From the NCBI RefSeq assembly GCF_965641715.1, contig NZ_OZ282454.1: a DNA stretch of 64,000 nt; one strand, 5' to 3'. Position 1 is the first letter of the stretch; every line of letters begins with the position of its first letter. A model generated the notes under the pieces. The model did not search any database and was not told the DNA's origin. It worked only from the letters and a program-made list of their open reading frames with translations. The stretch is from Escherichia coli. Its GTDB lineage: Bacteria > Pseudomonadota > Gammaproteobacteria > Enterobacterales > Enterobacteriaceae. Shown piece by piece: positions 6,428 through 36,035 of the stretch. A program made the position numbers and the translations under genes.

Positions 6428-9054
6428 GCCACACTCCTGTATTTCTCATGTTCTTCCAGCCAGGCTTCCAGCGAAGCCATCTCCGGCCCTGACTTCTTCC
6501 ACGCCAGCTGCCACACCGCCTCATGAATACTCAGCCCCTCTTTACGCTTCTGCTGCACAAACTCAAAATCCGGGCCGTCAGAGCTGTACATGGCGCGGCT
6601 TAACGGGTCCACAAACAGACGGTGCCAGGAGGAGTGGTTCTCCACCTGCAGCAGGAAGGAACTGAACCACTGGTCTTTGGCCGCACCAAACTTACCAATC
6701 ATGTCGCGCTGCAGTGGCAGGAACTGGTCCGGATACAGCTGGTTGTATTTCGCGAACTCCTTCGCACTCTGTTTGAGGATCATTTTGTAGGAGGAGTTAC
6801 CCCATGCCGCGCGGGCAGCACTGGAGGCCTTGTCAGAGTCAAAGTCGACGATGTTCTGTGTGATGGTGATATAGGCACCGGTATGACGGCGGGCGGTACG
6901 GTAGCCTTTCTCAATAAATTCACCGACCTTGTGATTTTTGAAGTCCAGCAGACGCCAGCCTTCATCAATAACGTTCAGTTTCTTGAGGTTACGCGGCGTG
7001 CGGTACATCCTGTTCTCGATGTAGATAATCAGGGAGAACATCACCGCAACCAGCAGTGACGGACGGTCTTCCAGTCCGCCCAGCTCCAGCACCACCATTT
7101 TTGCGTCATCCCGCAGGGACGGCTCATCAGAGTTAAAATACTGGCCGTAAGTGCCGTTGGCAGTGTACTGGTCAAGCAGCACAATCATTTCGTCCAGACG
7201 GCTGCGGATAGTCGGTGACTCGGCATACTGCTCGCTGTCACTGGCGTTTTTCAGGAAATCCACCACGTCATCAATACGTGCCCTGTTCTCTTTGGCCAGC
7301 CATGATGCCCTGACCGCCTGCAGCAGCAGACCTTCATGCACTTCATCCAGGTTACCGTTGGGGCTGGCCATCACCGACAGCTGGTCGCGGACACGCTCCG
7401 CTGACTGGTCAATATCGGTGATGTTCGCAAACGGGTTAAAGCGCAAGGTTTCACCGTCCAGATATACGCCCCCCATGTTCTCACACAGGGACTTGTAGCC
7501 ATCCCCCATGTCGAACACCACGGCAAAGCCCCCGGAGTCCAGCACGCTGCGGATAAGTGGCTGTATCAGCCCGGTTTTACCGGCCCCGGAGGTGCCACAG
7601 ACCGCCATGTTGTAGTTGGTGTTATTCATCCCCCGGAAGAAAATATCGATAAACGCCAGCTGGTTACGGTAGGTGGGTGCCAGCAGACCTGCCGGTGTCA
7701 GGGGGTTATCCGCCACTAACGGCATCAGGTTGGCAACATTAAAGCTCTCTGCGCGCTGAACCACTCCGGCCTCTTTCAGCTGTTTAAACAGCCCTTTCCC
7801 GGCCATAAAGGGCAGGCAGGTCAGGAAATTGCGCATGTGGTTAAAGCGCGGTGAAATCAGCTCAAAACCGTTTTTACGAAAGCTGTTCAGGATGTCCTGC
7901 TCCACTTCCAGCGCCGTTTCATTATTGTCCTTGCAGAATGCTGTGATGTTGAGGAAGTAGGACACCACGGAGGACTGACCGGAGCCCAGCCGCTGACGCA
8001 GTTCCCCCCACTCCTTCGCCTCTTTCTCCACGGACGGAAACCATTTGGCATAGGAGGTCTTCGACTTTTTCTCCAGGTCCATGTACTTCAGGCTGGCTTC
8101 GCTGTGGGTTTTCACCTGGTCTTCCACCACCAGAGTCAGCGTCAGGATGAACGGACAGGAGATGGATAATTCCGGGTTCAGCAGGTTGCTGTAGTTGTCG
8201 GCCATGTTCCACAGGAAGGCGATTTCCGGGTTACGGGCCAGATGGAAATTCAGGATGCGGGCCGTGCTGTTCCTGCCGTTCTCACGCAGGCCCAGCGTCA
8301 GGTAATCAGCCCGGACTTTCAGATCAAAACTGTCCTCCACACACTGATAATTCAGATCAGAATACGGGTCCAGCTGACGTCTTTTCGGGTACAGGGAGTC
8401 CGGGTTATGGTTAATCATCTCCCCGACAATATCGATAAAGGCCTGTGCATCCACCGTCTGTGTGGTGATACTGGCCCCCTGTAACGACGCCCGGATGATT
8501 TTCACCAGGTTTTCCATTTCCAGAATGTCGGCCCGGCTTTTTTTCTTCGAAGGAGAACAGTACGAGATAAACACCCGGTAATGGCGCAGGGTCAGGGGCA
8601 GATTCATCCCCTCCGGCAGCGGAAACTGTGTCGCTGCCGCTTTCATATAATAGGCCCGGGTAATGGCGTTAAACCGTTCAGCCTGTTCACCTGACCAGGA
8701 GAACTCACGCAGCCCGTATTCAATCCTGTCACCAACCAGCTGACTGGACATCAGATGGATACACAACGGAATACCGCGCGGCAGTTTGGTGCGCAGCATG
8801 TGATCGAGGGCCTCCACAATGGACTCATTCGCCCCATTGATGGGAATGGCTTCCAGCATAAAGCCCATCGTGGTGTCATTCATGAACAGACCGGATTCCT
8901 GGTTATAATCACGGTACGGCAGCAGACGGCTGAACTGCGGGAAGCTCATTTCGCCCAGAACTTCATTGGCCTTTGCGGATTCGTCAGGCAGTTTCAGTGC
9001 TGTGACGAGGGAGTTAACCGCCTGAGTGACGGCCTCAAGTGGGTTATTACTCAT
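6424..9054 (-). CDS. traC: TraC conjugative ATPase (VirB4 family)
   Basis: 876 aa ORF near-identical to recalled F TraC N-terminus (NNPLEAVTQAVNSLVTALKLPDESAKANEVLGEMSFPQFSRLLPYRDYNQESGLFMNDTTMGFMLEAIPINGANESIVEALDHMLRTKLPRGIP); Walker A GTSGAGKT. Confidence 0.96.
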   Translation of the reverse strand: MSNNPLEAVTQAVNSLVTALKLPDESAKANEVLGEMSFPQFSRLLPYRDYNQESGLFMNDTTMGFMLEAIPINGANESIVEALDHMLRTKLPRGIPLCIHLMSSQLVGDRIEYGLREFSWSGEQAERFNAITRAYYMKAAATQFPLPEGMNLPLTLRHYRVFISYCSPSKKKSRADILEMENLVKIIRASLQGASITTQTVDAQAFIDIVGEMINHNPDSLYPKRRQLDPYSDLNYQCVEDSFDLKVRADYLTLGLRENGRNSTARILNFHLARNPEIAFLWNMADNYSNLLNPELSISCPFILTLTLVVEDQVKTHSEASLKYMDLEKKSKTSYAKWFPSVEKEAKEWGELRQRLGSGQSSVVSYFLNITAFCKDNNETALEVEQDILNSFRKNGFELISPRFNHMRNFLTCLPFMAGKGLFKQLKEAGVVQRAESFNVANLMPLVADNPLTPAGLLAPTYRNQLAFIDIFFRGMNNTNYNMAVCGTSGAGKTGLIQPLIRSVLDSGGFAVVFDMGDGYKSLCENMGGVYLDGETLRFNPFANITDIDQSAERVRDQLSVMASPNGNLDEVHEGLLLQAVRASWLAKENRARIDDVVDFLKNASDSEQYAESPTIRSRLDEMIVLLDQYTANGTYGQYFNSDEPSLRDDAKMVVLELGGLEDRPSLLVAVMFSLIIYIENRMYRTPRNLKKLNVIDEGWRLLDFKNHKVGEFIEKGYRTARRHTGAYITITQNIVDFDSDKASSAARAAWGNSSYKMILKQSAKEFAKYNQLYPDQFLPLQRDMIGKFGAAKDQWFSSFLLQVENHSSWHRLFVDPLSRAMYSSDGPDFEFVQQKRKEGLSIHEAVWQLAWKKSGPEMASLEAWLEEHEKYRSVA

Positions 9055-19749: not shown

Positions 19750-20100
19750 CTGATGTTTTCAGCCCCCATCATCTGTTGAGTTTCGGGACCCGCCGCAACG
19801 ACGAAGAGCGCGTGCGCGAAACGGCGTTGCCCCTTACATCCCGGCGGCTTTTTGCCGGGATGCAAGGAGCGCAGGCCACGGCGCGACAGAGGCGGCGCGA
19901 CCGGAACGGTCGCTGCAAGCCCGGGGTTTTCACGCATCGGACCGTAGCGACAGCCCGAAACCGCGCCAGCGGGTTCGGCGGAGACTGGCAGGTGCGCCAG
20001 CAGCTGCCTGTCGGAGTCGGGCCTGACGACCGGATGCCGCCAGGCAGCCGGGAGCCGAAGGTGCGCCCGGCAGACAGGACAACACTGCTGTAGTCAGAAT
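19750..20100. repeat. Frpo/ssi-like leading-region repeat, copy A (shorter; lacks the 5' block)
   Basis: about 330 bp near-identical to 25431-25770 and similar to 28750-28890. Confidence 0.7.
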
Positions 20101-25140: not shown

Positions 25141-25770
25141 TTCAGCCCCCATCATCTGTTGAGTTTCGGGAGCCGCGGTTTTGACGTTTTGCGGGGACCT
25201 GCCTTTTGTTCCCTCCGGTATTCACCATCACCTGTTTGAGAACCTTCGCCGCAAGGGGCATCACTGCCACGGCCGGAAACGACTGTCCGGGGGCAGACCG
25301 CAAAAGTTTTTGCCGGCTTTTGGGCAAAAACTTTTGTGGGATGTGCATTTCACCCCTGGACTGACGGAGACGGTTGTGGCTGTCTTTGCCCCCGGCGACA
25401 GGGGTTCAAACAGGTGCAGGGCACCGGACACAACAACGGGCAGGCACCCGCCGCAACGACGTGAAGCGCGGTTTGCGAAACGGCGTTGCCCTCACATCCC
25501 GGCGGCCTTTTGCCGGGATGCCAGGAGCGCAGGCCACGGCGCGACAGAGGCGGCGCGACCGGAACTGTCGCTGCAAGCCCGGGGTTTTCACGCATCGGAC
25601 CGTAGCGACAGCCCGAAACCGCGCCAGCGGGTTCGGCGGAGACTGGCAGGTGCGCCAGCAGCTGCCTGTCGGAGTCGGGCCTGACGACCGGATGCCGCCA
25701 GGCAGCCGGGAGCCGAAGGTGCGCCCGGCATACAGGACAACACTGCTGTAGTCAGAATCAGAGCAGCAGG
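25141..25770. repeat. Frpo/ssi-like leading-region repeat, copy B (full length, about 630 bp)
   Basis: GC-rich, hairpin-rich; directly upstream of ssb in transcription sense. Confidence 0.7.
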
Positions 25771-28454: not shown

Positions 28455-28895
28455 CATCACCCGTTGAGTTTCGGGAGCCGCGGTTTTGACGTTTCGCGGG
28501 AACCTGCTGCTGTATTCCCTGTGGTATGAACTTCACCCGTTTGAGAACCTTCGCCGCAAGGGGCATCACTGCCACGGCCTGACGCACCTGTCCGGGGCAG
28601 AACGCAAAATTTTTTACCGGGTTCTGGGTAAAAAATTTTGTGGGCTGTTCATTTACCCTGGACAGTCAGTGCGACAGGTTGTGGCTATATGAGCCCCCGG
28701 CGACAGGGACTCATACGGGTGTGTGGCACCCGGCAGGCAATGAGCAGGGACCCGCTGCAACGACGGAGAGCGCGTGCGCGAAACGGCGTTGCCCCTTACA
28801 TCCCGGCGGCCTTTTGCCGGGATGCCAGGAGCGCAGGCCACGGTGCGACAGAGGCGGCGCGACCGTTCCGGTCGCTGCAAGCCGGGGGTTTTCGC
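28455..28895. repeat. Frpo/ssi-like leading-region repeat, copy C
   Basis: shares 5' block (GTTGAGTTTCGGGAGCCGCGGTTTTGACG...) and 3' block with copy B. Confidence 0.7.
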
Positions 28896-28931
28896 GCGGG
28901 CTGACAGGCGGCCTCCACCGCCTACCCTGTA

Positions 28932-29123
28932 TCACCTGTGTCTGCTGCCCTGAAGGATGTACTGACCACCGAGGAAAACAGCCTGCTGATTCGCTACAAA
29001 ATCGCAGATTTCATCAACAATCTGCGCGGTGGTGAGCGGTTTCTGTCCCATTTCACGACGCCGCGCATTAATCACGGCCCTGTAATTACGCAGAATTTCG
29101 CGGGTTTCCGTGCTGATATTCAT
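28932..29123 (-). CDS. hypothetical small protein
   Basis: 63 aa ORF abutting the next gene. Confidence 0.35.
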   Translation of the reverse strand: MNISTETREILRNYRAVINARRREMGQKPLTTAQIVDEICDFVANQQAVFLGGQYILQGSRHR

Positions 29124-29542
29124 TACCCGTTCTCCCCGTCCAGCGCCTGACGCATCACCCGCATAATCTCACGTTCTTCCCTGACAAATGCGTCACCGTC
29201 GCCCCCGTTCTCGCACCCGACAGCATGGAGGCGATAAATTTCACTACCAGCCATCACCATCACTTTTTCCAGCAGCACCGCAGGGACTGTTACAAGACGG
29301 TTTACGCGCTTTTCCTCCATCAGTTCATTGACAATATCGGAAACAACTCTGTCACATGCGCCATATACAAAAGCATCGTCCAGCCGCTGCATGACGGTTT
29401 CCAGCTCATCGTCTGACAGGTTCCAGTCCTGAGCCATATGGCGTACATCCCCACGGGTCAGCACTACGGCAAAAACGCATTCACTGTCCGGCACGTCTGT
29501 ATCCAGTACATCGCGGATAATTTCTTTAACAGTACAGTACAT
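29123..29542 (-). CDS. hypothetical protein, paralog of 32231-32698 (possibly DUF1380-like)
   Basis: 139 aa; shares motif NRLVTVPAxLL and acidic character with ORF 32231-32698. Confidence 0.55.
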   Translation of the reverse strand: MYCTVKEIIRDVLDTDVPDSECVFAVVLTRGDVRHMAQDWNLSDDELETVMQRLDDAFVYGACDRVVSDIVNELMEEKRVNRLVTVPAVLLEKVMVMAGSEIYRLHAVGCENGGDGDAFVREEREIMRVMRQALDGENG

Positions 29543-29588
29543 GTTCTCGTCTCCTTTACAGGGGCGGCATTGCCGCCCCGTCCGTTAA

Positions 29589-30014
29589 TCAGTCCAGTGC
29601 CGCATAAATCGCGTTACATTCGGGGTGAAATTCGATGTGGCTCCACAACTGCGCATCACGCATCCTGTACAGGTGTGCCAGCCCTGCGTTACCGCTGTCG
29701 TGGTACAGCCACAACTGGCGGTTAATCACAAGAGACATCAGAATGATGCCTGCGGCATCGGCACTGACCGTGCGGTCAAACCAGTTTTCACCGTTAACCA
29801 GATGAAAACGGTCGCCATCCGGCATCATGTAGCCGCCACCGTCCGGCAGGCGGATGAAATGCCAGAAGCCTCCCTGATATTCCGGCATCATTTTTTTCGC
29901 CAGCGCATACACTGATGCCTCGGCATACAGAAAATCGTTGCCAAACAGGTAAGGCAGAAAAGACAGACGGTCGATTTCTTCAACGTTCAGGGTGACAGAT
30001 TTTGCATACTGCAT
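29589..30014 (-). CDS. klcA: KlcA/ArdB-family anti-restriction protein
   Basis: about 141 aa from MQYAKS; recalled KlcA pattern DRLSFLP...FG...EASVYA...GGFWHF..LPDGGGYM.PD...VNGN...SADAAGI...AIYAALD. Confidence 0.78.
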   Translation of the reverse strand: MQYAKSVTLNVEEIDRLSFLPYLFGNDFLYAEASVYALAKKMMPEYQGGFWHFIRLPDGGGYMMPDGDRFHLVNGENWFDRTVSADAAGIILMSLVINRQLWLYHDSGNAGLAHLYRMRDAQLWSHIEFHPECNAIYAALD

Positions 30015-30120
30015 GGGATTTCCTCCGTTGTTCACATATTCCGCGACATCGGGCGGTGCCGGCGGCGACTTCCTTTGTGCTCTGTCCGGGGACCGGCAGG
30101 AAAAAGGCGGGGATTCTCCC

Positions 30121-31459
30121 CATAAGCGCTAACTTAAGGGTTGAACCATCTGAAGAATGCGACGCCTCGGTGCCTCGTTAAGACGATGCCTCGCGTTCTT
30201 CAATTGCGTTTTGTAGGCTGTCAGGGATACTGTCCCACGAATGGCCACCTGTAAGCTCCAGATGACCATTTTTGTTATTCTCCACAACGAGTTAGTTCTT
30301 CTTTTCGGATCCGGCACTTCTGGGGGGGAAATCCAGCGATGGCTGGATTATGTCGTCAATTAAAAATGCGGCGAGTAGATTAGCAAATATCCACGCTTTC
30401 GCGAGTTCAGGTTCCTTTGCACGCAAAGCATCCAGGTGCAGCAAACTTTTGAGCCGCTTAAAAGCCAGTTCAATTTGCCATCGCAGACGGTAACAATCAG
30501 CCACTTGCTCTGCTGAATATTCATCTTCCGGTAATGATGTTAGCAATAGCACATGGCCCGCTGCTTCCAGCGTTTCCGCCTGAACTACTCGTCCTTTTCG
30601 ACGATTCTCGCTGAGCAGTCGGGTTTTACTGATTAATGCTTTTTCGGGAGGAAGTGATACGGCAATGAGACGTGCCGGAAAGGGAGCTCCGGCTTTTTTA
30701 TTACCTGAATTGCCTATCATTACAGTGGTTTCACCGTTCTTACCGCAATCCAGCCCGCGCAGAAAACCCATCATGTCAAAGCGCATTCCTTCTGCAGTTA
30801 ACCAGCGCAATCCTCGCCAGTGAACCCGGACGATATAATCAGCTTCTCCAAAAGCAAGTGAGCGGATACATTCGGGACGCGAACCGAATCCCCGGTCAGC
30901 AATGCGTATCTCGTCTGCCGTTTGCGCAAATCGGTCCAGCCGTTCAGCGTCTCTGCTGTCGGTTAGCTCAAAATCAGTGAACTGACAGGTATGAGGATCA
31001 TATCCCATATGTAGTCGCCATTCAGCGCTGCCGCCCCCGGGCGCACTGATTGCTGTTCCATCGACAAGACGCAATCTCTTTCCGCTTGTACAACCCGTAA
31101 CTGCGGCGCGTACAGCAAGTGTTTGTGCGGCAAGTATGCCAAACCAGTCGGCGGCATTCCGCAGCCGCTTCAGGAGAGCCACGTCAGATAATGTTGCAAC
31201 GTCATGGAGCTGAGCCCATGCAGTGACTTCACGTAATGACATCCCCCCGGGGCCGTAAGCCAGCCCCAGACGTAGCAGAGTTGCAGCATCACGAATTTCG
31301 CGGCGGCGGGTTAGAGCCCCGGCATTACGTGCCGAAGTATCCAGTTCTTCGGGCTTACCAATATGGGCCAGAATTGCTGACCAGTTATCGTGAGAGTAAT
31401 TCATCGGCACGTTAAATCATATCAGGCGTAATACCACAACCCTTAAGTTAGCGCTTATG
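30121..31459 (-). mobile_element. IS186 (IS4 family), complete, with target-site duplication
   Basis: 1339 bp; terminal inverted repeats CATAAGCGCTAACTTAAGGGTTG (30121-30143) and CAACCCTTAAGTTAGCGCTTATG (31437-31459); flanking direct repeat GGATTCTCCC(C). Confidence 0.9.
30292..31410 (-). CDS. IS186 transposase
   Basis: 372 aa ORF matching recalled IS186 transposase (MNYSHDNWSAILAHIGKPEELDTSARNAGALTRRREIRDAATLLRLGLAYGPGGMSLREV...). Confidence 0.92.
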   Translation of the reverse strand: MPMNYSHDNWSAILAHIGKPEELDTSARNAGALTRRREIRDAATLLRLGLAYGPGGMSLREVTAWAQLHDVATLSDVALLKRLRNAADWFGILAAQTLAVRAAVTGCTSGKRLRLVDGTAISAPGGGSAEWRLHMGYDPHTCQFTDFELTDSRDAERLDRFAQTADEIRIADRGFGSRPECIRSLAFGEADYIVRVHWRGLRWLTAEGMRFDMMGFLRGLDCGKNGETTVMIGNSGNKKAGAPFPARLIAVSLPPEKALISKTRLLSENRRKGRVVQAETLEAAGHVLLLTSLPEDEYSAEQVADCYRLRWQIELAFKRLKSLLHLDALRAKEPELAKAWIFANLLAAFLIDDIIQPSLDFPPRSAGSEKKN

Positions 31460-31477
31460 GGATTCTCCCCGCCATCA

Positions 31478-32185
31478 TCAGCCCCTGATTTTTGCCAGGG
31501 CATCCGCCATGCTGCGGATTTCGACCCGGGCTTCCCGGACAACTTCCCGCAGAACACCACGGTCAAACCACCGGCGGGACGGTTCATCCAGTATACGCAG
31601 CACATCGCAGGCCAGCCCACTGGCCAGGATATGCTCAATACAATCGCTGACCAGATACATTTCCACCGCCGAAAAACGTGCGCCCCGGTTCAGAATGGCA
31701 TCGAGCACCACGGGCAGGTTTTCGTCGTCTTCATCGAGCCAGCAGGGGTGATCGCTTTCCTTCACGACCAGGCGAAAGCGGCGCGTCTGGCGGGTCAGCA
31801 ACGTCTGACCGCTTGTGGTCAGCGCCGCCCGGATACGCCGCGCATCTTCTGCCAGCCATTCGCCGGCATACGGGAAAGACACCTGCGTTTCGTCTGCCGG
31901 AAGTACCGGAAGCGACTGCCACTGACTGCCGGACAGAACAAGTTCCGCTCCGGTTCCGGTCAGTTTCTGAATGGCGGAGGCCAAGTGCGGCGGCAGTACG
32001 CCGCCGTGGCGGTTGATAAGTAACGTCGCCAGCCGGGGCGCATCCAGCCGCACGTAAATGCTGATCCAGCCCGGATACTTCGGGTTCCGCTGGTCAACAT
32101 CCGTCTCTTCCGGCCAGCCCTGCGCCAGTAGCAGGTTACGAGCGTGGCGATAAATCAGTGCATTCAGCGTTGTGTTTTCGTTCAT
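31478..32185 (-). CDS. hypothetical leading-region protein
   Basis: 235 aa ORF ending 18 bp from the IS186 right end. Confidence 0.55.
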
Positions 32186-32230
32186 GATTAATCGTTCTCC
32201 CTGTATCGCCGCCCGCAGGCGGCGATAACA

Positions 32231-32698
32231 TCAGTCGTTTTCGTGTGTGTTGTTTTTCAGCAGGGTGCGGGCCTGATTAACCACCGCCTGACGGCGGGTA
32301 ACGCATTCCGGGACGGCGAGGCCGTAATCACGGGCGGCCCATTCACGTTTCCACAGTGCCTGTTCGGCGGTCTGAATCAGGGACGCCAGCAGTTCAGCCG
32401 GGACGGTCACCAGGCGGTTTTCTCTCACGTTATTGATGATCTCCATCGCCACGCCGGAAGATATACCGGATTCAGTCCGCTGGTCTTCCGGGATGTCCTC
32501 CAGACGCGCCAGGACGGTCCTGATTTCATGATCGGACAGGGAAATATCCATTCCGTCAGCGAGGGCCTGAATCTCTTCCGGGGACCAGATAACCAGCATC
32601 AACGGCGTGTCTCCCGGATACTTTGCTGCCAGCGCCCGGCACAGCGTTTCGCATGTTCCGTACATTCTCATCTCCTTCTCAGTCTTTAAAGCACGCAT
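32231..32698 (-). CDS. hypothetical protein, paralog of 29123-29542
   Basis: 155 aa; shared NRLVTVPAELL motif. Confidence 0.55.
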   Translation of the reverse strand: MRALKTEKEMRMYGTCETLCRALAAKYPGDTPLMLVIWSPEEIQALADGMDISLSDHEIRTVLARLEDIPEDQRTESGISSGVAMEIINNVRENRLVTVPAELLASLIQTAEQALWKREWAARDYGLAVPECVTRRQAVVNQARTLLKNNTHEND

Positions 32699-32900
32699 CC
32701 AGTTCCAGAATTTCGGTATATGCCTCCATCAGGAGGCGGTTTGCGCGAAACAACGTCTGACGCACCAGACGTTCCGGCAGGGTGTCAGCATTAAAGCTGT
32801 ACCGCCGCTCCATCTCATTCATGGTTGTACGCAGGTCGCACATGACATTGGCCACCTCCGCCACTTCGGCGCGAAGTATTTCGTGTCCGGCATAGTTCAT
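32679..32900 (-). CDS. hypothetical small protein
   Basis: 73 aa ORF, translationally coupled position. Confidence 0.4.
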   Translation of the reverse strand: MNYAGHEILRAEVAEVANVMCDLRTTMNEMERRYSFNADTLPERLVRQTLFRANRLLMEAYTEILELDACFKD

Positions 32901-33635
32901 TTACGCAGCCTCCGGCATAAACCAGTCATCATTCGCGGCCCCCTGCTGCATGGGCCGTTGCACGGCGGCAAGGCGTTGCTGCCCGGCACGGTGATACTGC
33001 TCAAGCAGCTCGATACCGATATACCGGCGTCCGGACTGGAGGGCGGCGACGCAGGTTGAGCCGCTGCCTGCAAACGGGTCCAGCACAATTGCGTTCGGGT
33101 GTGTGAAGCTCTCAATCAGCGGTTACAGGCTGGTAACGGGCTTTTCCGTCGGGTGATGGCGATTGCCCGAATATTTCCAGCCCAGCACGTCCGGCGGCGG
33201 GTTTTGTGGCAGACGTGGACGGCCTTTTGCCAGGATGTAGGCGCATTCGTGGCGATAGCCCACATATGCGGCCTTCGATGTGTAGTTTTTGGTGAAGACC
33301 AGGTGACCAACAACGCTGAATCCCGCATTTTTCCAGGCGGCCATAAAGCGATCGGCGCGGTTCCAGCCGTAGAAGCTGACCATCAGCGCATCTTTTTTGA
33401 GTACGCGGAACATTTCATTACAGGCCGGTTGCAGCCATTCATCGGTTTTATCGCCGGCAATGGTACGCCCTGAACGGTCACGGACCCCCACCAGGTAAGG
33501 CGGGTCGGTAAGTATGAGATCAATGGCGTTATCAGGGATACGGGCCATAACATCGATGCAGTTACCGAGGACAAAACGGGACATAACAACTGTATGAACG
33601 CATCCCCGTTTGCAAGGCATCCGTTGTTCTGACAT
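32901..33635 (-). pseudogene. beta-class DNA methyltransferase interrupted by in-frame ochre (TAA) at 33123-33125
   Basis: upstream ORF has DPPY and ...HHPTEKPVTSL; after TAA the same frame continues PLIESFTHPNAIVLDPFAGSGSTCVAALQ (motif I). Confidence 0.75.
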
Positions 33636-33699
33636 CGACGATTAGTTGCAGCTCTGTATCCGGCCTTATTGCAGCCAGAGCTGCGGGCCACTATGAGAT

Positions 33700-35200
33700 T
33701 CGCTGACCTGAGCCTTATTCTCCTTACGGACTTTATATCCCGGCTGTTATTCAGATTTATCAGGTCACGGTCTTACCTGTCGTTGTCATCACTCGGGCCG
33801 CCAGAGCAACCTTTCAGCATTCACCCTTTTGTTAAGAGTTCATTATTTATCGGTATCAGCGATTAATATGGTCTGATACTGACATGGTTCCTGTCATACT
33901 TACGGTCATGGGCAGCTATCGCCCATACTGTTCGTGCCAGCTTGTTTGCCATGGCGACGATAGCCACACTGGCTGGACGACGTTTTTTCAGTTCGGTTAT
34001 CCACGGACCAGGTTCTTTAGTCAGTAATGCTGCCGCCCTTGCGCCATGAATAAACAGGGTTCGCAGATATGTATCACCACGTTTGCTTATCCCCAGCAGG
34101 CGAATTTTCCCTCCTGAGCCAGTCTGTTTGGGCACCAGACCAACATAAGCCGCGAACTCTCGCCCTGATTTAAACGCTGATGCTTCCCCCATGGTGGCCA
34201 CCGCTGCCGTCGCAATAAGTGGCCCAACACCAGGAATATCCAGCAACCGCTTACAGGTCTCATTCTGTTTCGCCACGCTGGCAAGCTGTTTTTCGATGTC
34301 TTCTATCAGGGAGTCCAGCTCATTCAACCGCTTATACTGGTTTTTCAGTACCGTGATGAGATACGGTGGCAGTCTCTCTTTCATTCGTTCCAGTGCTTCA
34401 GGGAACTCCCGCTCCATTGCTGCCCGACCTTTGTGGATGGTTTCACCAAACTCCAGTAACGTCCCGTGTAGGGCGTTAATTTGTGCGATCCGGAACTTCA
34501 CCAGTTGCATGCGGGTACGGTGCAGAACCAGTACCGACTGCTGTTCTTCTGTTTTGACGGCAATTTCTTTACCGGGCTGCTGAACCGCCATCCAGATAGC
34601 CCGGGCATCCATCACGTCGTTCTTGTTTCCCATGACGAATGCCTTAACGAAGCGGGCCTGTAACAAGCGGACGTTATGCCCCAGCTTTGTCAGCTCCCGT
34701 GCCCAGTGCTGAGAGCCTCCACAGGCCTCCATACCAATCAGGCAGGGTTCCCGGTTGCTGAAATATTCAAGAAAATCTCTGCCACGAAGTTGCTTATCCA
34801 CCACTTCACCTGTGTTCTCATCAATGAAGTGAACCTGAATCAGATGTTTTGCGATATCAACGCCAACCGGTGTATATTTCATTTGTGGAGTCTCCAGTCT
34901 GAGGGAACTTTATGCATCCCGTATTGGGCACAATGATGCCGGAAATCTGCGAGGCTCCACACCTCTCTGATTTCCCCCTTTATTCATCACTGTGCTCCGG
35001 ATTTAATGTTGGGGGATGCGTTCATCTCATTCTCCTTCTCTTACAGAAGACACCGGGAGGGCCCCCCTGTGGTGCCCGTTCCCCGCTGCCTGTGGGTTGT
35101 TCACCGCGTCCGGTAACGGGTCAGGCCGACCGTGGAATATCGCAGCCGTCGTCTTTTTGACGGCGAGAATATGCCGTGAAAGCGGCTTGAAGGGCGTTCA
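33700..35200 (-). mobile_element. IS110-family element (boundaries approximate, not determined)
   Basis: transposase gene plus non-coding flanks; this family lacks clear terminal inverted repeats so ends cannot be fixed by eye. Confidence 0.3.
33863..34882 (-). CDS. IS110-family transposase/recombinase
   Basis: 339 aa; MEACGGS...NKND.MDA (DEDD N-terminal) and LLDIPGVGPLIA...GLVPKQ.GSGGK...GISKRGD C-terminal motifs. Confidence 0.85.
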   Translation of the reverse strand: MKYTPVGVDIAKHLIQVHFIDENTGEVVDKQLRGRDFLEYFSNREPCLIGMEACGGSQHWARELTKLGHNVRLLQARFVKAFVMGNKNDVMDARAIWMAVQQPGKEIAVKTEEQQSVLVLHRTRMQLVKFRIAQINALHGTLLEFGETIHKGRAAMEREFPEALERMKERLPPYLITVLKNQYKRLNELDSLIEDIEKQLASVAKQNETCKRLLDIPGVGPLIATAAVATMGEASAFKSGREFAAYVGLVPKQTGSGGKIRLLGISKRGDTYLRTLFIHGARAAALLTKEPGPWITELKKRRPASVAIVAMANKLARTVWAIAAHDRKYDRNHVSIRPY

Positions 35201-35408
35201 TCAGAAAAGGGCGACAGGCTGGCGTACACTGTCACCGACGCCAGCCGGAAGTGGTAAAGGCGCCCGTCCCGTGCCCGCCGGACGCGGGACACTGACCACA
35301 GGCAGCGTTTATGCCGCGCCGCGTCAGCCGGCGCAGTAAAAAGAGGAGCACGGCGACATCCTTTACCGGAAAAGAAACGGGCGGTTGCCCGCCCGTCTCC
35401 GTCATACT

Positions 35409-36035
35409 TCATCCGCCATAATGCACCACATTGTCGACTATCCACGCAGGTCCGGTGACTTCCGGCAGCTCATCGTCATCTGTCGGGGAAGACCATTCCA
35501 GTTCCCCCCACAGCACATCAACGAGCTCTCCGCGCTCATACAACTGCCAGCCACAGAAATCACAGCCCTGTTCGGCATACCAGTGCTCCAGCGTGCAGCT
35601 GAAACGGCGGCTTAATTCTGCAATAACGTCGCTTTCCGGCTGACACCACGGAGTGTCGAAATCAACCTGAATGAAGTTGTCTCCCTGACTACTGATATTC
35701 ACCTCATACCCCACAGGCCACTTCACGCCATACCGTTCCGTATACCAGTGATATGCAGAAGGAACACCGTTCAGAACACCACCGTTAAAGCCATTCACTT
35801 CAACATCCAGGCGGGTCGGCAGAACCGTCAGCAGGTCAAACGGCATGGTATTTTCCGGCAGTACGTTGTCACACAGACGGTTCCACCACACCGATACATC
35901 CTCGTTACTCCAGAAGCCACACCAGTCACCTCTTTTTGCGGTGAAAAGTGCGGTGATGGTATCCCTGACATCGTCCGGTAATCCTTCCCAGCGACGCTGT
36001 CCAGTACCGCTCTGCAGCCAGAGTTCATGCAGCAT
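35409..36035 (-). CDS. hypothetical acidic Trp/Cys-rich protein
   Basis: ORF 35409-36302; start placed at internal Met (MLHELW...) because upstream part overlaps umuD-like remnant on opposite strand; hairpin terminator after stop. Confidence 0.4.
   Translation of the reverse strand: MLHELWLQSGTGQRRWEGLPDDVRDTITALFTAKRGDWCGFWSNEDVSVWWNRLCDNVLPENTMPFDLLTVLPTRLDVEVNGFNGGVLNGVPSAYHWYTERYGVKWPVGYEVNISSQGDNFIQVDFDTPWCQPESDVIAELSRRFSCTLEHWYAEQGCDFCGWQLYERGELVDVLWGELEWSSPTDDDELPEVTGPAWIVDNVVHYGG

Follow-up and report, generated by a model that had tools for sequence, protein, structure and literature searches.

Two DUF1380 paralogs, separated by an old duplication, on either side of klcA in the leading region of an F-type plasmid

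What are the two small acidic proteins encoded on either side of klcA and an IS186 insertion sequence in an Escherichia coli plasmid, and what has set them apart from each other? We addressed this question in a 64,000-nt stretch of E. coli plasmid DNA (NZ_OZ282454.1, assembly GCF_965641715.1; the whole stretch is hereafter called the window), for which an earlier reading made from the letters alone (the sequence-only reading) had described two open reading frames (ORFs), here ORF A and ORF B, as divergent paralogs sharing the motif NRLVTVPAxLL, and had ascribed their divergence to diversifying selection. We found the two genes to be homologous members of the DUF1380 family in the wider sense, derived from an old duplication and held under purifying selection. 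Both lie on the minus strand, at the positions given in that reading (29123-29542 and 32231-32698); the coordinates of A stand, but the start of B is most likely at 32665:

29123-29542, minus strand: ORF A, an A-type DUF1380 paralog (YcjA/YubJ type), 139 aa, isoelectric point (pI) 4.4.
32231-32665, minus strand: ORF B with its corrected start, a canonical DUF1380 protein (YcgB/YubF type), 144 aa, pI 4.8.

A ribosome binding site (RBS), GAAGGAG, lies 6 nt upstream of 32665, and a start at this position yields the N-terminus MYGT that is found family-wide. The start at 32698 gives a 155-aa version with 11 additional, unsupported codons, and the Pfam match of B begins at M12 of this longer version. 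A is preceded by its own RBS, AAGGAG, 8 nt before the ATG.

The proposed paralogy was borne out, and the similarity between A and B is stronger than had been stated. BLASTP aligned residues 1-104 of A with residues 12-117 of B (numbered from the 32698 start) at 30% identity over ~107 residues (E 3e-10). Their Smith-Waterman score was 101, compared with 28.7 +/- 4.9 for 5000 composition-preserving shuffles (z 14.7), none of which attained the observed score. This similarity reaches beyond the motif, since the 80 residues N-terminal to it gave a z of 8.5 by themselves; over the ~45 residues C-terminal to the motif, the same shuffle test detected no similarity between A and B (z 0). When allele profiles were compared with hhalign (21 A-type and 36 B-type alleles), the two families matched with 97% probability over 107 columns (E 8.4e-11). 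Both checks that the sequence-only reading had suggested, pairwise and profile alignment, thus gave significant similarity and not a coincidental motif.

The motif itself, NRLVTVPAxLL, is exactly common to the two proteins, as had been noticed. Six of its ten identical residues are encoded by different synonymous codons in A and B, indicating that the motif is held by selection; recent gene conversion was thereby ruled out as its origin. Most other plasmids have SRQVTVPAVML in A and NRQVTVPAELL in B, so that the family-wide core is R-x-V-T-V-P-A-x-x-L, and the exact match over 11 residues appears to be partly peculiar to the alleles of the window.

B is a full-length match to Pfam DUF1380 (PF07128; cut-off 26 bits, model length 137 positions), with 179.4 bits (E 4.6e-53) over model positions 1-137, and also matches PHROG 9024. 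A scored 18.6 bits (E 0.0021) over model positions 1-105 only, below the cut-off, and is therefore filed as a divergent homologous subfamily and not as a member at the Pfam threshold. In the wider sense A is homologous to DUF1380 through the hhalign and BLASTP matches given above; it aligns collinearly, end to end, with 31 diverse DUF1380 members, A-type alleles 77-80% identical to it carry precomputed PF07128 matches, and 30 of the 33 members of the joint alignment match DUF1380 at E <= 1. The hallmarks of the family are a length of ~135-145 aa, the MYGT N-terminus, an acidic residue followed by an LLVW-type hydrophobic segment, the R-x-V-T-V-P-A motif and two long C-terminal helices. Every one of these is present in B; the counterparts in A are MYCT, VFAVVLT and NRLVTVPA, and its low-confidence model shows the helices in the same order.

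Databases already annotate the paralog pair, which is very widespread. A protein identical to A is annotated "DUF1380 family protein" in CP057088.1 (the RefSeq/NCBI name), depositors name the A-type 'YcjA', and ORF A is 99-100% identical to database members; 385 database relatives of A were recovered, and close homologues (alleles) share 73-99% identity. Plasmid F carries the same pair, as yubF (B-type) and yubJ (A-type), and pESBL does likewise. The pair belongs to a module of seven genes in the order methylase, 73-aa YubE, DUF1380-B, YubH-like, KlcA, DUF1380-A and 63-aa ORF, present in F, pESBL, IncI-gamma/K1, IncI1/B/O, Klebsiella and Salmonella plasmids and in at least 5000 plasmid records overall. 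Compared with Pfam DUF1380 and F-plasmid YubF (also YcgB, YceB or YfcB), B agrees in length, in its leading-region setting and in standing behind the methylase and YubE, as the gene does in F and pESBL, and shows no notable difference from YubF apart from its over-extended start call. A falls within the YcjA/YcgC/YfeC/YubJ group, whose members always follow klcA; it is linked here to the DUF1380-B group by profile-profile comparison and collinear alignment, while the sequence of its C-terminal helical hairpin is unrelated to that of B.

In a survey of leading regions (Samuel et al. 2024, Nature, PMC11541004, Supplementary Table 1), gene family 7, of 3957 members, corresponds to the B-type, and families 14 (of 3145 members) and 218 correspond to the A-type; both types are among the largest enriched in leading regions and were marked as uncharacterised, and the YcgB/YubF group (family 7) was clustered apart from families 14 and 218. 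Two of the largest uncharacterised leading-region families are in fact a single family divided by an old duplication, and DUF1380 proteins are among the commonest leading-region genes of the resistance-spreading IncF and IncI plasmids of Enterobacteriaceae.

How old, then, is this duplication? A hidden Markov model built jointly from A and B, run exhaustively over 1.84 billion representative proteins, recovered only 278 relatives, of which the full-length ones are collinear throughout and split into A-like and B-like forms. In a neighbour-joining tree and identity matrix the A-types form one clade, being 34-46% identical among themselves and 17-30% identical to B-types, even to the B-type of their own locus. 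We then compared gene order at distant loci, taken from lineages less than 50% identical to the A and B proteins of the window. B follows an N6_N4_Mtase gene and YubE in eight of eight lineages (loci L012, L014, L016, L017, L020, L022, L024 and L025), and A follows the Antirestrict/KlcA gene in four of four cases (the window, L012, L020 and L022). The small ORFs that adjoin A and B are mutually unrelated, as are klcA and the yubH-like gene, which rules out a segmental duplication. One clade, fixed synteny and unrelated neighbours together argue for one old single-gene duplication followed by stable retention, and by the same comparisons the duplication is older than the split of the carrier plasmid lineages. 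It seems to have taken in the translation-initiation region as well, since the RBS and start regions of the two genes resemble each other (AAGGAGACGAGAACATGTAC at 29542-29560 and GAAGGAGATGAGAATGTAC at 32665-32682). Each branch of DUF1380 is thus tied to a different anti-restriction gene.

We next turned to the proteins themselves. Both are acidic, as the sequence-only reading had said (A, pI 4.41 and net charge -14; B, pI 4.78 and net charge -8), and this acidity is kept across the family, A-types ranging from -11 to -18 and B-types mostly from -6 to -13. An AlphaFold2 (AF2) model of B, made from a diverse 33-sequence alignment, is all-helical and confident, with a predicted local distance difference test score (pLDDT) of 85.7 and a predicted template modelling score of 0.57. 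It has seven helices: five within residues 5-82, followed by an extended R-x-VTVPA segment and an antiparallel hairpin formed by helices 90-113 and 120-142. Fold searches with this model returned no informative match; its N-terminal domain gave a marginal, uninformative BFVD match to a 92-aa uncharacterised Erwinia phage protein (E 3e-3). PADLOC, NCBIfam and a tblastn search against 50,697 phage records likewise gave no match for A or B.

To examine how the two genes have been shaped, we estimated dN/dS (the ratio of nonsynonymous to synonymous substitution rates) by Nei-Gojobori counting over 10-11 diverged plasmids. The values were 0.27 for A and 0.26 for B, compared with 0.09 for klcA, 0.10 for the methylase, 0.13 for psiB, 0.33 for ssb, 0.27 for DUF1281 and 0.10 for the 63-aa ORF; A and B are thus less constrained than klcA or the methylase, and close to ssb and DUF1281. 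A scan in 15-codon windows found none robustly above 1 in either gene. The maximum of pN/pS in A is 0.6, in an indel-rich segment at residues 56-75; the tightest constraint in both genes falls within the hairpin (pN of 0 at residues 86-110 of B; pN/pS of 0.02-0.09 at residues 106-125 of A). Among distant members, hairpin identity is 35% within A-types and 30% within B-types, but 17% between the two, whereas the corresponding values for the N-terminal domain are 32%, 39% and 27%. Judged from these counts, selection on both A and B is purifying. Their divergence concentrates in the hairpin, which each clade conserves strongly in a form unrelated to that of the other; this points to subfunctionalisation through the hairpin and not to an arms race between the copies. 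As a separate observation, A-type alleles look like mosaics of two haplotypes (residues 58-72, 79-83, 95-105 and 125-131) with indels of a 4-residue repeat (VVHG) in the variable segment; pS ranges from 0.05 to 0.40 along the gene, and the mosaicism and uneven pS suggest recombination among plasmids.

The surroundings of A and B were then considered. The window is an IncFIA/FIB F-type plasmid, identical to pRHB38-C15_2 (CP057088.1) but for one IS186 copy. traM and oriT are found at ~16.9-17.7 kb, and sequence resembling umuD at ~35.8-36.3 kb and beyond. A and B stand between oriT and umuDC on the same strand as ssb, psiB and psiA, as expected of leading genes in location and orientation, and the leading-region placement made by the sequence-only reading was correct. 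All leading genes being on the minus strand, the plus strand of the window is the transferred strand (T-strand). The neighbourhood is an anti-defence island of KlcA/ArdB, an M.EcoGIX-type single-stranded DNA (ssDNA) methylase, ssb and psiB, in which the neighbours of A and B include the following:

28932-29123, minus strand: the 63-aa ORF (YubK position), whose start overlaps the stop of A (TAATG).
29589-30014, minus strand: klcA/ardB, first gene of the A operon (PF03230 Antirestrict, E 1.7e-25), its start inferred from 141-aa homologues.
31478-32185, minus strand: the YubH/YchA-like gene, last gene of the B operon (phrog_8919, E 8.6e-120, in two stretches).
32679-32900, minus strand: the YubE-family gene, 73 aa, directly upstream of B (phrog_4830, E 1.6e-32).

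The pair does flank klcA and IS186 as had been described, with A 46 nt downstream of klcA and B upstream of the yubH-like gene and the IS186 copy. Homologues of klcA are annotated as antirestriction protein in homologous plasmids, and YubE homologues carry PF27407 in every distant locus examined. The TAATG overlap suggests translational coupling of A with the 63-aa ORF, and F, pESBL and other plasmids keep a 192-bp coding sequence behind their A-type gene. The two operons are divided by a strong intrinsic terminator that follows the yubH-like gene; scanned in an uninterrupted sister plasmid, it consists of 8 pairs, of which 7 are GC, and a TTTTT run. A perfect GC-rich hairpin, GGGGCGGCAaTGCCGCCCC, was also seen at 29561-29579, between the klcA stop and the RBS of A; having no T-run, it could be an mRNA stabiliser or attenuator and not a terminator.

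Published work places both operons early in the recipient. In transconjugants of pESBL and F, RNA-seq showed the operons of KlcA and M.EcoGIX to undergo strong induction at an early stage, driven by new hairpin ssDNA promoters whose starts were mapped by 5'RACE (rapid amplification of cDNA ends); klcA and ardA are preceded by promoters of class 2, and M.EcoGIX by one of class 3 (PMC12672017). In line with this, the spacer that precedes klcA in a sister plasmid shares 96% identity with its counterparts in F and pESBL, folds into a large hairpin (folding free energy, dG, -109; z -5.6) and recurs upstream of ardA. In an IncI-gamma/K1 plasmid (L001), this second copy of the hairpin region is 95% identical to the first (177-529 versus 7116-7520), matching the single class published for the ardA and klcA ssDNA promoters. 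As for the M.EcoGIX operon of pESBL and F (PMC4288162, PMC7736820), function has been demonstrated for the methylase only, which protects against type II restriction; B stands third in its methylase-YubE-DUF1380 cassette, the one kept in the eight lineages above, and in the window the methylase is a pseudogene. By transposon insertion sequencing (TnSeq), Hp10 and Hp12 of pESBL, which we verified to be its two DUF1380 genes, scored non-essential (1.00) for maintenance and transfer to K-12, as did the surrounding known conditional anti-defence genes (PMC4288162). In F, the klcA-operon promoter is ssp2, which is also a replication roadblock; its deletion cuts transfer at least 21-fold with wild E. 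coli, 36-fold with an EcoGIII host and 5-fold with an EcoKI host, and ssp3 in place of ssp2 restores transfer to the EcoGIII host, to wild strains partly or not at all, and to the EcoKI host not (preprint 10.64898/2026.01.09.698686, 2026). The authors of that study invoke 'other potentially important leading genes downstream of ssp2', and the klcA operon has only three genes, the A-type gene among them.

The explanation that we favour, and hold to be probable, is that A and B are functional genes and ancient DUF1380 paralogs, whose products act as protein-binding, conditional accessories of plasmid establishment or anti-defence, with partners specified by the hairpin. A single duplication was followed by the locking of each copy to its own neighbour, B within methylase-YubE-DUF1380(-YubH) and A after KlcA/ArdB. 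The products are small, acidic, all-helical cytoplasmic proteins with a common N-terminal domain of ~85 residues, the R-x-V-T-V-P-A strand motif and a long C-terminal hairpin. According to the literature, hairpin ssDNA promoters drive both operons within minutes of the plasmid entering a recipient; A and B would act early in the transconjugant, by binding protein and not DNA, as conditional establishment or anti-defence accessories. The N-terminal domain may carry out a shared job while the hairpin peculiar to each clade gives the two paralogs different partners or targets; for each paralog, this could be a product of its own operon (methylase or YubE for B, KlcA or YubK for A) or a different host defence protein. 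An anti-defence role is plausible by association: A and B share with ArdA (a DNA mimic), KlcA/ArdB and PsiB the same island, the T-strand orientation, early expression from ssDNA promoters, a similar size and acidity, and an equal dispensability in permissive matings, but show no sequence or fold similarity to any of them. The old split, the fixed anti-restriction neighbours and the clade-specific hairpin make DUF1380 experimentally tractable.

Several points weigh against this explanation. Synteny and co-transcription are no proof of a functional link, and two lineages have klcA without an A-type gene, so KlcA does not require it. The literature searched held no functional study of DUF1380, ycjA, yubJ, yubF or their like, and a paper on protein translocation by the F type IV secretion system does not deal with these proteins. 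Structure prediction, another check suggested by the sequence-only reading, was confident for B but poor for A: a shallow 31-sequence alignment gave a model with the same helix order and a pLDDT of 55, which was left out of the fold searches, so that the architecture A would have in common with B relies on collinear alignment and matching low-confidence secondary structure. Finally, residues 56-75 of A may hold positively selected sites, given that the estimates come from 10-11 recombining alleles and a counting method.

How do other explanations compare? That the motif is a coincidence between unrelated or non-coding ORFs has in its favour only the low overall identity of A and B (23-30%); the shuffle scores with and without the motif, the profile match, purifying selection on both genes and hundreds of conserved homologues rule it out, leaving it a negligible probability. 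The sequence-only reading had instead taken A and B for duplicated anti-defence genes driven apart by diversifying (positive) selection. Their site among anti-restriction genes of the leading region, the high allelic diversity of close homologues, the indel-rich segment at the pN/pS maximum of A, and dN/dS values 2-3 times those of klcA and the methylase all lean this way, yet the claim did not hold up: gene-wide dN/dS is well below 1 in both genes and no window robustly exceeds it, the duplication predates lineages with under 50% mutual identity, each copy keeps its position and partners, and the region that differs most between the paralogs is the one most conserved within each. We consider it very unlikely. 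Toxin-antitoxin pairs, YubE with B and A with the 63-aa ORF, are suggested by the gene sizes, tight spacing and start/stop overlap, and toxin-antitoxin genes are frequent in leading regions (PMC11541004). This idea is largely refuted by the published pESBL TnSeq, in which insertions were tolerated in all four genes (Hp9, Hp10, Hp12 and Hp13, each non-essential at 1.00); moreover, no toxin or antitoxin family matched in Pfam or PADLOC, the two small ORFs are not related to each other, and one precedes its DUF1380 gene whereas the other follows it, which makes the idea highly improbable.

Two further explanations concern what the proteins bind. A and B could be DNA-mimic or decoy inhibitors like ArdA and Ocr that directly block a DNA-binding host enzyme (a restriction endonuclease, RecA or RecBCD), independently of their operon neighbours. 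Their conserved acidity, small size, helical make-up and early ssDNA expression would suit such a role, and F lacking the promoter of the klcA operon is more sensitive to a type II system as well; since KlcA is not known to counter anything but type I restriction, that sensitivity could be due to another gene of the klcA operon. We found no sequence or fold similarity of A or B to ArdA, ArdB/KlcA, Ocr, anti-CRISPRs or the PADLOC set, and regard direct mimicry as improbable. Alternatively, the C-terminal half could resemble a ribbon-helix-helix (RHH) fold and the proteins be DNA-binding regulators that shut off or autoregulate the early operons after the plasmid has become double-stranded. The topology of the R-x-V-T-V-P-A-x-L-L-E segment and the two helices behind it is RHH-like, the motif and LLVW segments are extended and unpaired in the B monomer model, as expected for strand pairing across a dimer, and weak RHH_5 matches appeared in 5 of the 33 members (best E 0.03). 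These matches vanished when C-terminal fragments were searched, so that the lead was not reproduced and no membership of an RHH model was found, and the proteins are acidic; a regulatory role of this kind thus seems quite unlikely. We hold possible, though rather doubtful, a stricter version of the favoured explanation: DUF1380 proteins would be early establishment factors of two branches, the hairpin making each paralog the dedicated partner of a different anti-restriction module, B of M.EcoGIX and YubE (for example recruiting or activating the methylase on the SSB-coated T-strand) and A of KlcA/ArdB and the 63-aa protein. The 36-fold effect of ssp2 deletion with EcoGIII, rescued by a substitute promoter, is invoked for an A-type arm acting beyond type I, and if this version were true, that arm could explain how the klcA operon (ssp2) protects F beyond type I restriction.

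A and B themselves are intact in the window, and the features that bear on their operons are these:

28455-28897, plus strand: Frpo/ssi (class-1) type ssDNA-promoter repeat downstream of the A operon, serving the next operon and not A or B.
30096-30121, minus strand: downstream part of the B-operon terminator, stem GGCGGGGAGAATCCCCGCC plus T5, split by IS186 from its other part at 31459-31473.
30122-31458, minus strand: IS186/IS421 copy, 1337 bp, with an IS4-family transposase and inverted repeats, separating the two operons.
32901-33584, minus strand: M.EcoGIX-type ssDNA adenine methylase pseudogene (Pfam N6_N4_Mtase), with a premature TAA at codon 154 (33125-33123).
33586-35031, minus strand: IS110-family element, 1446 bp, between the methylase RBS and ATG, identified from the L001 comparison and the transposase annotation of CP057088.1.
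35032-35440, plus strand: structured stretch of the T-strand, matching in position the class-3 ssDNA promoter published for the methylase operon, and severed from that operon by the IS110-family element.

A 299-bp deletion at the ~30058 junction removes the klcA-upstream hairpin, that is, the published class-2/ssp2 position (compare locus L004, 5584-6000). Only two plasmid records are at least 99% identical over the deletion region, so the deletion looks lineage-specific, and the plasmid of the window is a natural ssp2 deletion variant. On the other side, the structured region at 35032-35440 has a dG of -97 kcal/mol (z -4.8), compared with -116 (z -7.4) for the homologous region of L001. The methylase aligns without gaps to the intact L001 gene, the stop standing where intact homologues have Gln. 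With the klcA hairpin deleted, IS186 in the terminator, the IS110-family element between the methylase and its promoter, and the nonsense codon in the methylase, ssDNA-driven expression of both operons is probably impaired in this plasmid.

The yubH-like gene has an in-frame deletion of 23 aa (residues 112-134 of the usual 258, by alignment with L001), the ends of which have similar sequence (AEDE/AEDA). The IS186 copy, absent from the otherwise 100% identical CP057088.1, is bordered by a 12-bp target duplication, GGGATTCTCCCC, at 30110-30121 and 31459-31470. IS421 occupies the same terminator site in L001, and most of the top plasmid records have it annotated within the matching segment; by this recurrence, GGCGGGGAGAATCCCCGCC, the GC-rich hairpin of the terminator, seems to be a hot spot for insertion.

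The Frpo/ssi repeat at 28455-28897 forms a ~320-nt hairpin on the plus (transferred) strand (dG -133 kcal/mol, z -9), and further copies lie at 25150-25593 (83% identity) and 19785-19935 (93%). Hairpin-seeking mobile elements cluster on the structured DNA of leading regions (33586-35031 in the window; 5980-6951 in L007, 2520-4187 in L004 and 1160-3061 in L006). ISEc32, of the IS110 family, sits inside the klcA-upstream hairpin of pAPEC-O78-ColV, and in two other plasmids group II introns occupy noncoding spacers downstream of the A operon, at or near the Frpo-like spacer position.

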